Of a DNA stretch of 64,000 bases, positions 1,727-60,417 are shown one piece after another. Origin of the DNA: Lingula anatina. Lineage: Eukaryota; Animalia; Brachiopoda. The notes under the pieces were generated by a model that was not told the origin of the DNA, made no database searches, and saw nothing but the letters and a program-made list of their open reading frames with translations. Where the stretch lies: the NCBI GenBank assembly GCA_051362555.1, contig CM120646.1, forward strand, positions 4,526,001-4,590,000, written 5' to 3'. Within the stretch, counting starts at the first letter, position 1; the number at the start of each line of letters is the position of its first letter. Position numbers and translations under genes: made by a program.

Positions 1727-4700
1727 CTAGGAAGCCATCACAGCTGCGTACTCTACTCGTTCGTCGCTCGGGTTTACGGTTAATGTTTTTGACTTAGCTG
1801 ATCCTGTTCCCGTCGAGCTGACCGACTTGGGGTTATCATGTAGTGCCAAATCAGCATAGTGGAGGTTCTCTACATTCTTGTCGAGGGGCTGGAATGACCA
1901 AATTCTTATATAGTCTCTAGAGCACCAAGAGTTGTTAAATGTGAAAAAAATAAAAGTAGTCTCAGCAAAGGGTTCTTCTATATAAATAATAATAATAAAA
2001 AAAACAGACTCGACGTCCGTCTTCCATAACAATGTGACCAAATTTTTGTTAAAATACATATGCATTAGCTTAATTATTATCTCATGAAAGTATCGGTAAA
2101 ATCCACACTACTTACGTTGCTCTTCCTCCAGTCATCTACATTCTCTGCGCTCTCTTCAATAGGCTGAAATGAGACCTATACCTTCAAGTGGTTTATAGCA
2201 GTTACATTAAAGGGTAATTTTATCAAAAACCACAGACCTACAGGTATGTTTCATGTCTGTCTTCCTAAAATGTTACTGAATATCTGTTAAAAATATGCAT
2301 GTCGACTGTTAATCCAAGTCCTCATTTTTTATCATAAGAGCCACACTACTTAAGTTGCTCTTCGTCTTCTCATTGGTATTCTCTGCATTGCTGTCGAAAG
2401 ACTTAAGATCGGCGGTGTTCATTTAATTTTTAATATGCCCTGTACATAAATAGGAATAACTAGTACATGTGTTGCATTTCAAGTTATGGCAGTGTTAAAG
2501 ACATCGAATAACACTAAACATTAGCACGTATATGTTATTAGTTGATTTCTGTTCCTTGCGACTGCTGGTGCCGCTGCAACAAGACGGCCTTGTTCACAAG
2601 AAGCCTTTGATTTTATCAACATCATATCAAAACAGTTAAGAGTCCTACTCACATAACTCTTTCTGTACGTGGCCTTTATCTGGTCGATATCTGAACAATA
2701 GGATATGAAAAAATCAATTATTGGCGGAAAAAATCATTCAAACTTTGTTCTACATAAGTTTAAACAAGCTTTAATTTTAGTTTACACTTCAATCTGTCAC
2801 GTAGACTGTTCAGCACAGAGAGTAAGTTACTAACCCGATGTGGAATTCCCTTTGCTATTCTTTTTCAGACAAGTGACCGCGACGATGATGATGGTAATCA
2901 ACAGCACCCCTCCCCCGCATCCGGCGCCGACGGCGATAATAGTCTCTTTGGATAATCCAGTACTTGCCGGGTCCTTTGAACTACTGGATTTACTGGCTGT
3001 AATGAAAAAAATCTTCGTCAAGCAGCTGAGAGTATCGGACCGAATGGTTTCATCATTAAGTGATCACAATCCACACTGTAGAAAAATACGCCCCTACGAT
3101 ACAACCAGTTTGATAGTAACAACACGTCAGTGTTTTTGGCTTCTTTAAAAGCAGAACAATAGGTAAGTTTTCTCATAACTCAAAACATATAACAGTTGGC
3201 ATAATCAACACGCTGTAAACTTTTTTTTTTTGGGGGGGGGGGGTGCTTTGCTATTTATTCAGATTTTTCGTCTGTAGACAAATCATCGCTTGACCCATCC
3301 CTGTGCTCACTTGGATTGGATGTTTTATACCATTTCTTATCAAATCATGTAGTTATAAATGGCTGGACAGTCAATTAGACTGCCTTATCTTTCTGTACAT
3401 TTAGATACTTCATTAGAACTTTTATTGCTTTTACAGGAAATTTTACAGGATATGTAGGCATAGAACATATCTTTCAGGACAGTTTAAGTGCGTACAGTAC
3501 ATCTTTAATCTTTCATATGCCTTTTTCGTAGTGACTTATTAAATAACATGTGGACTACAGTATAAATTTGTATCTGATAGTCTTGTAAACGAGAAATTGC
3601 GAATTGACATTGACTTACGAGGTACAATACTAGAAACTGGAAACGTCGTCCTTTCTGAAAATAAAAGATACTGTTCGTTAGTTGATATTTCATGGCACGT
3701 TAAATAACACATTTTTTTCATTTGAAAAACTTGGTATGGAAATAAGATATAGACCATACATATGTAGAAGGCGGTAATGATTATAGCATAAAAGTAACAA
3801 AAACCTGTTATCCGAAAGATCTATGACGATGCTTACACCACCTACAGATATCCCTGTTATCTACTTTTTTAACGCTATTTATTGTGCTCTTCATCTCACG
3901 TTGTCGCACCTAGTTTGACATGATTAATGAAGATGTCAGATGACTTGTGAATATAGATGAAACGTTGGAAGGAAAAATCAATGGGCACACACGATTTTAT
4001 AGCACACTCGTCCCATGTCCCTCATTTCTAATGTTGATTTTACTTTTCGACCATACATATAATGCAATGTTTTCTAGATTATTTTTGAATATTGGTTTTA
4101 TTTCATCAGGACTTTGCAACATTCCAGCATTTAGAGCTTCTCGAAAGAGCTCGGCTGGGCTTTTGATGTCTTTTTGAACTCAACATTCCCCTGATATGTT
4201 TCATATATAGACAATTTGCTAAAATCAGTTAAAACAATTGCTTTATTACACAAAAGTTTATTTATTCACTTTCCAAGACTATAGTCTTTAGTCAAAGGAC
4301 ACGTAACGCCTAACATAATGAATTATTGACTATAATATGTACATTAAAACGTATGGGGACTGTACTATATGTCACTTGCAGAGGTAAAACTATGAGAAAG
4401 GACACCTTTATGAGTGTAACAGAATGGTTTTGTTTCTGATTTATTTTGAGGTTCGTGCTGTTAATAAAGGTATTGCTATCTGCAATTTATTCTCAATTTA
4501 AATCACCATGCAGTATATACTGAATATTATAAGAGAAAAATCAATACTACCGTCTAGGGGTGCAGAGCATATAATTACCATTTATTGCACTGACTTTAAT
4601 ACTCGTACTTGTAATATAGGCCTGTGTCGTTGTAAATGACGTTGTTAAAGATCGTAGATCTGTAATGATAATAAAATGCTCTTTTACAAAAAAAAAAAAA

Positions 4701-5894
4701 AAAAAAAAAAAAAAAAAATGCGTTTGCATTCCGTGTCGCTAACTTAGACAGAATGATTAAAGCTGGGACATTTTACATATGTATATTTCTTTGAAAACGA
4801 TACATATAAAATTCTTTGAAAAAGGTGGTAGTACCTTTACTTTGCTTGAAAAATGTTTGTATGATATATGGAATAAAGCACGCCATTAAAATTTTCATAT
4901 GATACGACGAGCGTATTTCGGACACTTTGCAAACAGCATTTATGCAGATTATCACCACACGAAGGTTCATCAATATGCTCACTTTCTTTTCTGTGAGAAT
5001 ACAGGTACTGATGTCTCTTTATTTTGTATTTTTTGTACATTTTGTACATTTTAATTGTTGTAAGACAATTTTTAAACAAATTTGATATTTTATGTGTTAT
5101 AATTCGCATCAAGACAAATCATTCTTCAACATACCTGGATTATTTCTAAATTGAAATTGTTAATCCAATCTTCACATAGCAATGTTTTGCCTTAGTTTGA
5201 TAATTTTTGATATGTATTTTTCTTCAACACACACACACACACACGCACGACTGTACATACCTGTAACTACAACGATAGTCATTGTTGGTAAGGTGATGTC
5301 CTCGTGATCACCTAGAATATTCATGGCACATGTGTAGTTTCCACTGTCAGATATGTTCGCCAATGGAATATTAAGTTGAAAGTTCTCTGTACCACTAGGG
5401 TTGTACACATTGTTTGGAGTTATGCTTCTATTAACACACTCCTCTGTCGTCGTATTCACTTTTGCTAATACGACCGTGCACCATGGATTATCATTCTTGA
5501 GCCATTTAACGCTAAAACTCAAGGCTGACAAATCTCTTGATGTGCTGAAGTTGCACCACAATGAAAATGGACTCCCAGCGTTCGGGGTAACCTGTTCACT
5601 CTGTGCTACAGTCTGGCTTATCACTGAAATGACCAAATATATGAGCGGTAGTTTTAACTCAGGTGTTGTTTCTCAAGTCACTACACACAATTGTTGAAGT
5701 AGTCAGTGCTTTAATTGGGGAGACTTTTCCGGTTTGGCAAGGGATGGGACTGTTCCTGAATACCTAAATACTGGTGTAAATGACTTAAGAAATAACTATT
5801 CAAAAGCGTTAAATAAAGTCCCTTCAAAGCTAATAAACTTACCCTCAGAGGTAACATAAAAGTACAAAGATACGAGCATTAACATCCACTCCAT
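1727..5894 (-). CDS. A1: inhibitory Ig receptor (SP-IgV-stalk-TM-2xITIM)
   Basis: Exons: 5894-5843 (MEWMLMLVSLYFYVTSE), 5623-5261 (V-set Ig, WCN...KW...DSGNYTC), 4659-4579 and 3654-3619 (Thr/Ser stalk), 2996-2835 (TM IIAVGAGCGGGVLLITIIIVAVTCL), 2690-2653, 2163-2116, 1888-1727 (PLDKNVENLHYADL...RVEYAAVMAS*). All junctions are GT-AG and in frame. Confidence 0.88.
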
Positions 5895-6058
5895 CTTTTT
5901 TAACTACCCATATCAACGTCAGAGGTTCATCTGCGAGGCTATCCTACATGTCAAAGTCCGCAGGTATTTGCATATCAAAGCGGAAGAGACCCTTTGCCTA
6001 CATGTATGATATGTTTAAATTTTAATAGCCAGAAAACTTTTACGCAATATCACCTGCG
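5895..6058. promoter_or_regulatory. Putative bidirectional promoter of pair 1
   Basis: About 165 bp separate the divergent ATGs. It contains TATCAAAGCGGAAGA (5973-5987), which recurs exactly at 28862-28876 and 59566-59580, and an upstream CAAAGTCC. Confidence 0.65.
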
Positions 6059-59469: not shown

Positions 59470-59776
59470 CCTTTCTAAGTGGTTAATTGCTTAAAATATT
59501 CTGTCAGATCGTTGCTTCACTTATTTTACAATGTCATCCAAAGTCCAACAACTAACACATATCGTTATCAAAGCGGAAGACACGATAACCCAGTTTAGTA
59601 TCAGGAAGAAGGTATGGGCATTGATTTTTTTTACAAAAATATAATTATTAGATATATTAGAGTCTTGTCCTTTCCAATTTGTGTTTGAAATATTTTACTC
59701 CAAATCATACTTGATTGCGATTTATTATTGCAATTACATAACAGTTGACTATAACCCCAAAGTACAGGCAGGGGCT
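59470..59776. promoter_or_regulatory. Putative bidirectional promoter of pair 5
   Basis: TATCAAAGCGGAAGA at 59566-59580 and CAAAGTCC at about 59539 are kept in otherwise unalignable sequence. Confidence 0.6.
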
Positions 59777-60417
59777 ATGATTCCCGAATTGGCAAGACGG
59801 CAGACCAGCTTATTAGATGCGTACATTTCCACGGTGATACATCTATTTTTGAAAAGTTGTGTTTTTCATCTTACACTAGCTGGTGAGTATACACTTATTG
59901 TAAACTGAGATTTAAATACTTTAGACATTGTCTTGGTTGATGCAGTTAAATTATTCTGTATAGGCAAAAATGAAATATCTATGAATTTTATATAGAACAA
60001 AGACAATGTGAACTGGCATGTTGTCTATATTCCTAGTTTTAGTTGCTGGTCAAACAGGCAATGATGGAATCATGAACAGCCCCTGTACGTTAAACATATA
60101 CAGTGGAGATCCATTTTCTCTGTGGTGTAACCTTACCAGTCACCAAGACCTGGTCGCTGGATTCACCATCAGATGGTTAAGGGATGAAAAAGAGTGGTGC
60201 TTTATTTCTAGAGCAGTAAAAAACACCACATCGGGTGAATGTGCTACCAGAAGCATCTCCATAAACATTGTATACAACCCAACTGGTACACAGGATTTTC
60301 AACTCCCTGTTCCAAGTGCGATACTAACTGACAGCGGAAATCACAGCTGTACAATAACTCTCACTAGCACGGGTGTTCTTATACGTCCAAATTCATTCAC
60401 ACTGGTAAAAGTCTCAG
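59777..60417 (+). CDS. Partner of A5 (5' part only): signal exon plus an Ig exon nearly identical to the A5 Ig
   Basis: Candidate exon 59777-59882 (G|GTGAGT) and Ig exon 60037-60417 (G|GTAAG). No downstream stalk, TM or kinase exons were recognised within the window. Confidence 0.7.

Follow-up and report, generated by a model that had tools for sequence, protein, structure and literature searches.

Head-to-head pairs of an ITIM-tailed Ig receptor and a receptor tyrosine kinase in Lingula anatina carry Ig exons matched within each pair

We analyzed a stretch of 64,000 nucleotides of the brachiopod Lingula anatina (GenBank assembly GCA_051362555.1, contig CM120646.1, positions 4,526,001 to 4,590,000 of the forward strand; hereafter, the window), which has a GC-content of 36% and contains five head-to-head units of two receptor genes. 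Gene A, on the reverse strand, is a predicted immunoglobulin (Ig) receptor whose tail matches the ITIM consensus (ITIM: immunoreceptor tyrosine-based inhibitory motif), and gene K, on the forward strand, is a predicted Ig receptor tyrosine kinase (RTK). The Ig exons are matched within pairs and, as far as the sequence can tell, this matching is the gene-conversion signature of paired receptors of the Siglec-11/16 type, here with a kinase as the partner. We consider it about an even chance that each pair constitutes an on/off receptor module with A as the brake. The original prediction had described an invertebrate paired-receptor system with an RTK as its activating arm. The anatomy and the pairwise matching of the Ig exons agree with this proposal, but only two kinases are present and one of them is frameshifted.

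The exon models were built from the sequence only; all their internal boundaries follow AG/GT, and their phases are consistent. The three units with open, pair-matched Ig exons on both sides (units 1, 2 and 5) contain the following features.

1727..5894, reverse strand: A1, with a signal peptide, a V-set Ig, a serine/threonine-rich (S/T) stalk, a transmembrane segment (TM) and a two-motif tail; exon model, open, 301 aa, 7 exons (5894-5843, 5623-5261, 4659-4579, 2996-2835, 2690-2653, 2163-2116, 1888-1727)
1739..1864, reverse strand: A1 motifs in the last exon, LHYADL (1864-1847) and VEYAAV (1756-1739)
5895..6058, no strand: spacer between the start codons of A1 and K1, predicted bidirectional promoter, containing a 15-bp element at 5973
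6059..13223, forward strand: K1, with a signal peptide, two V-set Ig exons (6635-7030 and 8243-8638), a stalk, a TM (9422-9507) and kinase exons (10073-13223); open, 713 aa, 15 exons
5266..7022, no strand: matched Ig tracts of unit 1 (5266-5579 and 6709-7022), 88.9% identical
19526..28780, reverse strand: A2, similar to A1, but its S/T-rich N-terminus is longer and it has one more tail exon; open, 355 aa, 8 exons
29213..38260, forward strand: K2, with a signal peptide, one Ig, a TM and a tyrosine kinase; 13 exons
27969..29897, no strand: matched Ig tracts of unit 2 (27969-28293 and 29573-29897), 96% identical over 325 bp
57132..59469, reverse strand: A5, with a signal peptide, a divergent Ig, a TM and a tail whose two motifs are LHYADL and VEYAQV; open, 262 aa, 6 exons
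59777..60417, forward strand: K5, with a signal exon (59777-59882) and an Ig exon (about 60043-60417); TM and kinase not found up to 64000
60091-60436 (K5, forward strand) and 58841-59187 (A5, reverse strand): matched tracts of unit 5, 95.4% identical over 347 bp

The repeating unit that had been claimed is real, with open models for A1, A2, A5 and K1. Units 1 and 2 derive from the duplication of a whole unit: their non-Ig exons are 89% identical between A1 and A2 (463/519) and 90% identical between K1 and K2 (1180/1307), and five of their introns are 81–92% identical. The start codons of A and K are separated by 165 bp in unit 1, 433 bp in unit 2 and 308 bp in unit 5, in agreement with the predicted spacing of about 165–430 bp, but K4 starts about 1.3 kb from A4. 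The 15-bp spacer element is found in three copies in the window (5973, 28862 and 59566), one in each spacer of units 1, 2 and 5. Three other origins of this layout were ruled out: uncollapsed haplotypes, as the introns of units 1 and 2 differ by 8–19% and their exon numbers differ; inversion of the spacer, as the orientation of the 15-bp element relative to A is constant across the three units; and a separate origin of each A from its own K, as the tails and introns group by type.

All Ig exons of the array belong to a single V-set family with an additional conserved cysteine pair. Of the 10 Ig exons that were scanned, nine have a match to Pfam Ig families at E ≤ 0.001 and one has such a match at 0.002; in eight exons the V-set is matched. 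The A2 Ig, as modeled by AlphaFold (pLDDT 83.6), finds its closest solved structures in CD96, amphioxus IgVJ-C2 and PD-1 (14–25% identity). The Pfam scan, the model and the structure comparison agree that the partners share a V-set family, as had been proposed. Each ectodomain carries 6–9 N-glycan sequons, and no match to a sushi domain was obtained in the exons scanned. A search of 1.84 billion representative sequences with an Ig profile yielded 291 matches at E ≤ 0.001. Among the best 150 of these 291, a single one combines this Ig with a kinase motif, Lingula anatina XP_013413611.1, and the others that were examined are generic Ig proteins, the nine named ones all being from vertebrates. 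A protein atlas search with the Ig likewise returned generic V-set clusters, and a metagenome scan for the Ig found it in none of 176 stretches.

The relationships between Ig exons follow the pair and not the type of receptor. The Ig exons of A1 and A2 are about 80% identical, below the 96% observed between A2 and K2, and the amino-acid identity of the Ig core is 83–94% within pairs and 44–77% between units, so that the closely linked receptors have highly similar putative ligand-binding domains. In four quartets, the informative Ig sites grouped by pair in 33/33, 38/38, 109/109 and 120/120 cases (these sites are linked and nominal P values overstate the support), and trees forcing the A and K types apart were rejected by the approximately unbiased (AU) test (p-AU of 8e-5 and 3e-54). 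Synonymous divergence (dS) of the Ig exons is 0.045 for A2-K2 and 0.028 for A5-K5, as compared with 0.41–0.51 between units 1 and 2 and with 0.15–0.33 for the non-Ig exons of these two units (P = 0.001; Fisher test); it is 0.25 for A1-K1 and above 1.5 relative to unit 5. The tails, kinases and introns group by type. The 200-bp flanks of the partner Ig exons show 54–69% identity, near the 58–60% of shuffled sequences. Because the Ig exons group by pair, the non-Ig exons by type and the flanks are near the shuffled level, DNA has been copied between partners after the duplication of the unit, mainly over the Ig exon. The second Ig exon of K1 resembles that of A1, including on its acceptor side, which is another sign of sequence traffic between partners. 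Together, the quartets, the AU test, the dS values and the flank contrast make it likely that gene conversion matches the Ig exons within pairs. The ectodomains had been predicted to be matching; the result is stronger than this claim, as they seem to be kept matched within the pair by an exchange limited to the exon.

The tails of A1, A2 and A5 end in LHYADL followed by VEYAAV or VEYAQV, confirming the two ITIMs that had been read at the end of the A genes; at the sequence level both motifs fit the consensus I/V/L/SxYxxL/V. The two tyrosines are 35–36 residues apart (34–35 residues between them) and the last one lies 6 residues from the C-terminus. At least two consensus matches arose in 0.9%, 0.35% and 0.035% of 20,000 shuffles of the A1, A2 and A5 tails, respectively, these tests not being independent since the three genes are related. 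A5 retains both motifs though its Ig is only 46% identical to that of A1. The A tail has no match in Pfam and none of any meaning among solved structures. In the protein atlas search it yielded a match of 0.86 to a mostly molluscan cluster, which is a lead only, and the metagenome matches to the tail (2 of 115 stretches) were dismissed as chance matches inside other frames of GC-rich contigs. Within the A tail, an exon of 48 nt that is related to the beginning of the ITIM exon was recopied, at 2347-2394 (reverse strand) in A1 and at 20542-20589 (reverse strand) in A2; it is followed by a GT donor in A2 and by TT in A1.

K1 models as a complete RTK: its kinase motifs are intact, including the glycine loop, the VAIK-type lysine and WMAPE, and its TM carries no charge. 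It also presents two YxN sites (Y509 and Y701); YxN is the Grb2 consensus. The kinase exons of K1 and K2 have a dN/dS of 0.19, which indicates that they are under purifying selection. The K2 exon 37460-37558 lacks 1 nt (near 37540) relative to the corresponding exon of K1, which places the last kinase exon out of frame; this may represent a true lesion or an assembly error. The array of kinases that had been described is thus limited to K1 and K2, the only genes of the window with kinase exons, the second with a 1-nt frameshift. The number of Ig exons is itself variable, with two in K1, one in K2 and two in A3. These kinases resemble neither of two known types in their ectodomains. FGFRs proper have a three-Ig ectodomain with an acid box and Cad96Ca/Stitcher has a cadherin ectodomain, whereas the genes of the array have one or two V-set exons, all from a private family. 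The kinase insert is presumably similar to that of Cad96Ca/Stitcher. Neither the Ig exon of K1 nor one kinase exon gave a match in word-index searches of proteins, which are weak tests. At 37051-37200 (forward strand), short tandem re-duplications cover the 3' half of one kinase exon of K2 together with the donor site.

The sequence shows that the unit duplicated as a whole while the V-set Ig exon was rewritten within each pair and differs between pairs. Under the mechanism that we favor, a short shared promoter would place A and K on the same cells, where both would bind the same ligand, the ligand differing from unit to unit. Once clustered, K would become active and phosphorylate both its YxN sites (Grb2-Ras) and the two tyrosines of A. 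A phosphatase with tandem SH2 domains (SHP2-like), or SHIP, would in turn be recruited by A, setting a threshold on K signaling. Units would be born and lost by tandem duplication, with the kinase arm lost more often than the ITIM arm. We favor a brake because conversion matching linked receptors marks opposing pairs, because K has its own YxN sites and because the ITIM tails outlast the kinases; an inhibitory role of A is therefore the likeliest reading of these sequences. ITIM receptors of oyster and amphioxus have been reported to be inhibitory through SHIP or SHP (PMC11841013, PMC8211107). By analogy with known systems, the likeliest role of the module would be the recognition of non-self or damage. 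In its widest form, the proposal is that of a paired-receptor immune system of an invertebrate, a self-contained tandem recognition switch in which an RTK and its own ITIM brake would share one short promoter and a specificity locked by conversion, with units diversifying and the built-in kinase replacing the ITAM adaptor (ITAM: immunoreceptor tyrosine-based activation motif); its probability falls a little short of one half.

The tails are also compatible with the opposite sign. A might be a co-receptor or docking subunit that its matched Ig brings to K, through a common ligand or by like-with-like binding, and that would recruit SHP2 once phosphorylated by K and boost Ras-ERK signaling as Gab1 and PZR do. 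We regard this as unlikely, although it is a serious alternative. Gab1 and PZR each have two tyrosines that dock on tandem SH2 domains once a kinase is active, as is proposed for A; SIRPalpha and CEACAM1 are likewise SHP2-binding partners with two tyrosines. We know of no SHP2-binding partner that shares its ectodomain or its promoter with the kinase that phosphorylates it. The likeness of the A tail to Gab1 is our presumption, and the solved structures provided no match in its support. In both A and K the TM contains GxxxG motifs. The two SHP2-activating tyrosines of Gab1 are 31 residues apart (10.1101/2024.12.23.630100, PMC12132298), to be compared with the 34–35 intervening residues of A, PZR is an Ig receptor with two ITIMs that signals positively via SHP2 and SRC (PMC9672471), and the head-to-head pairs of Botryllus are formed by a receptor and a co-receptor (PMC12582321). 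Because the tandem phosphotyrosines of Gab1, with their similar spacing, activate SHP2 downstream of RTKs, A could signal with either sign. Against a docking role, the YxN sites of K1 would make an adaptor unnecessary and the A tails outlive their kinases.

Returning to the on/off module, several observations weigh against it. Recruitment of SHP2 often or normally potentiates growth-factor signaling, and the lack of a TM charge in K means that the classical activating design is absent. Only one of the five units is fully intact (unit 1): units 3–5 are broken or incomplete and K2 is frameshifted. The within-pair dS of unit 1 is not significantly below that of A1-A2 (P = 0.17), the homogenization of this unit being, to judge from the sequence, older. 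The dN/dS of the Ig between units is 0.29–0.63, which argues against an arms race even though the differences are concentrated in the BC, C-C' and FG regions, and overall positive selection on the Ig was not seen with a simple NG86 count. Moreover, inverted repeats 1–2 kb apart could convert without selection. No ITIM partner of the Lingula kinase was found among 74 candidates of 228–727 aa, a weak test in which only the query cluster was returned.

RNA reads add to these points. Seven of nine raw runs were mapped, with 6–30% of each run read, at a threshold of 93% for unit 1 and 85% for unit 2 (one run, X7, was used for both). Unit 1 received 0, 0, 5 and 2 partial reads, without any joint. 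Unit 2 received 737, 856, 4942 and 4558 reads, nearly all of them on intronic repeats, which indicates that the source organism or a close relative was present in those runs. Depth was zero in the ITIM-exon bin and in the kinase bins 32120-33401 of unit 2, and no A or K exon junction was recovered among the 15 of 39 joints examined for this unit. RNA-seq had been suggested as a means of confirming the exon models; this confirmation was not obtained.

A second alternative is that A and K are not functionally coupled: A would have arisen once beside K, nearby inverted Ig exons would convert neutrally, and the genes would be separate or decaying. Four of the five units are broken or incomplete, no spliced reads were seen in the seven runs, changes that followed conversion have dN/dS values of 0.76 and 1.08 that look unconstrained (with wide intervals) and, once introns have diverged, homology alone would confine conversion to the exon. 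In contrast, the between-unit dN/dS stays under 1 for the Ig, the ITIM exon and the kinase, K1 and three of the A genes are open, and the head-to-head order, the short spacer and the spacer element persist across units whose Ig exons have a dS above 1.5. On balance we find the absence of coupling improbable.

Another reading of the Ig exons is that A and K of a pair recognize each other between cells by like-with-like binding, forming a code of self-recognition or adhesion with one specificity per unit. Such a code would need exactly what is observed, matching within pairs and difference between pairs, and the units differ most in BC, C-C' and FG (identity of 22/36, 17/32 and 6/20, respectively, between units), with strand B and EF differing least. 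Homophilic binding is reported for cnidarian allorecognition proteins. But the Ig dN/dS is below 1 and the 6–9 sequons may mask surfaces, and we hold this reading to be very improbable.

Judged on its gene organization and exon similarity, the locus resembles paired receptors and presents their genomic hallmarks. As in Siglec-11/16-type pairs, the genes are head-to-head, the converted exon encodes the ligand-binding V-set, one member has ITIMs and the partner is frequently lost. The Siglec partner lacks a signaling tail and uses the ITAM adaptor DAP12, whereas K has its own kinase and no TM charge instead of a short-tailed activating design; for this reason, the locus does not belong to the vertebrate paired-receptor family. 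Furthermore, the Siglec genes lie about 9 kb apart and not 165–433 bp, and in the array it is the whole pair that was multiplied in tandem. SIGLEC11 and SIGLEC16 are arranged head-to-head, with about 9 kb between them, and have been matched by conversion that occurred repeatedly (PMC5701461), conversion is a known pattern for linked receptors of activating and inhibitory types (PMC5701461; PMC13358205), and activating vertebrate partners use DAP12 and are frequently lost (PMC13358205). The loss of the K arm in the array, with three open A tails (A1, A2 and A5) against one intact kinase, echoes this reported loss of activating partners (PMC13358205).

In invertebrates, two systems present partial similarities. 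The FF/FcoR genes of Botryllus are also head-to-head Ig receptors, one member of which carries ITIMs or other tyrosine motifs; but FF has neither a tyrosine motif nor a kinase and the ectodomains include sushi domains, whereas the partner here is a kinase. FF/FcoR pairs are reported to be born and lost together and to have no kinase (PMC12582321; PMC12065747). The array shares this mode of duplication and loss by units, as seen from its five units and from a whole-unit similarity of 81–92% that includes introns. The Botryllus pairs are described as co-expressed, and recombination between FF and FcoR is reported to be absent for most of these genes, which is the opposite of the matching observed here (PMC12582321). 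In Geodia cydonium, an RTK and the non-kinase receptors SAML and SAMS have matching ectodomain architectures, as A and K do. An ITIM in SAML was reportedly noted by Blumbach in 1999. The Geodia ectodomains are a tandem of V-like and C1 domains, unlike the single V-set exons of the array, which are not of the C1-set. The two-Ig architecture common to the Geodia RTK, SAML and SAMS has been linked to self/non-self recognition, and the text consulted describes no head-to-head linkage, array of pairs or conversion (PMC11926128).

Two Lingula anatina entries annotated as 'FGFR3-like' (XP_013413611.1 and XP_013415522.1) are relatives of K, with a single Ig of this family, an S/T stalk and a similar TM, but were annotated by kinase likeness only. 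The Ig of XP_013413611.1 matches the family with an HH probability of 98% and 29% identity, the extra cysteine pair being kept. Its kinase is 49% identical to that of K1 and nearest to FGFRs among solved structures. The two Lingula kinases (P0030 and P0151) differ at 10/118 positions of the Ig and 7/302 of the kinase region and could be alleles or paralogues.

An RTK-ITIM head-to-head pair was not found in the literature within the reach of our search, which left most subscription journals and the supplements of genome papers outside, and the accessible part of a review of invertebrate Ig proteins does not use the word 'paired' (PMC11999971). The original statement that no description of this arrangement exists thus holds for the full combination of kinase and ITIM receptor, but Siglec-11/16, Botryllus FF/FcoR and Geodia SAML/RTK are partial precedents. 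In the articles consulted, paired immune receptors oppose ITIM to ITAM. If the proposed module is real, its RTK activating arm would show that the logic of paired receptors (head-to-head order and conversion) arose with different parts, and it would provide a job for an orphan 'FGFR-like' kinase named by automatic annotation from kinase likeness alone. The pair would also offer a two-gene system for asking directly in which sense, damping or boosting, an ITIM tail acts on a kinase with which it has its ligand in common.

The remaining features of the array are as follows.

6..486, forward strand: 3' flank, probably of another K gene that lies upstream of the window; it shares 84% identity with the K1 3' flank (13382-13859)
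40007..44772, reverse strand: A3, with a signal peptide, two Ig-plus-stalk repeats and a TM followed by a stop; the frameshifted ITIM exon leaves either a pseudogene or a receptor without a tail
45201..46240, forward strand: K3 remnants, a signal-exon-like piece and a broken Ig exon; TM and kinase exons not found downstream
51975..52304, reverse strand: A4 remnant, a signal exon with a stop and the start of an Ig exon interrupted by a repeat
53641..54850, forward strand: gene in the K4 position, with a signal peptide (53641-53701), a long S/T-rich and divergent Ig exon (53897 to about 54580) and a short stalk exon; TM and kinase not found
60991..61323, forward strand: second Ig copy behind K5, broken

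The earlier reading of the flank at the window start as that of a further K gene is supported by this identity. Units 3–5 had been described as decayed, modified and partial, and each of them is indeed damaged or incomplete; for K4 and K5, in particular, no TM or kinase was found. No TM-like exon was found behind K3, K4 or K5 by a scan that detected the TM of K1, and K5 may continue past 64000. Both K4 and A3 could be decoys instead of pseudogenes, the former as a secreted mucin-Ig protein and the latter as a two-Ig receptor lacking a tail.

Transposable elements are found in several parts of the array. A hAT-type element separates units 1 and 2 (13860-18320) and matches the Pfam families hAT dimerisation and zf-C17orf113. 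Its ends form terminal inverted repeats flanked by a target duplication of 7–8 bp, and it is CpG-depleted at 16–18 kb. The region 62000-64000 is CpG-depleted like the interior of this element and is possibly another transposon interrupting K5. The 6-kb intron of A2 contains repeats and a 5'-truncated long interspersed element (LINE) with a reverse transcriptase frame of 445 aa (21446-23870, forward strand). An insertion in a K2 intron (33777-36860), not found in K1, is covered by RNA reads and contains broken frames, which we take to resemble Tc1/mariner transposases.

Finally, an intronless open reading frame lies within the receptor array at 49790-50638 (forward strand; first Met at 49997) and matches Pfam ApoL (E = 7e-9). 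ApoL proteins are effectors of innate immunity in vertebrates. Just upstream, an open frame of 200 aa without a Pfam match (48886-49488, forward strand) could represent a separate gene or a first exon.

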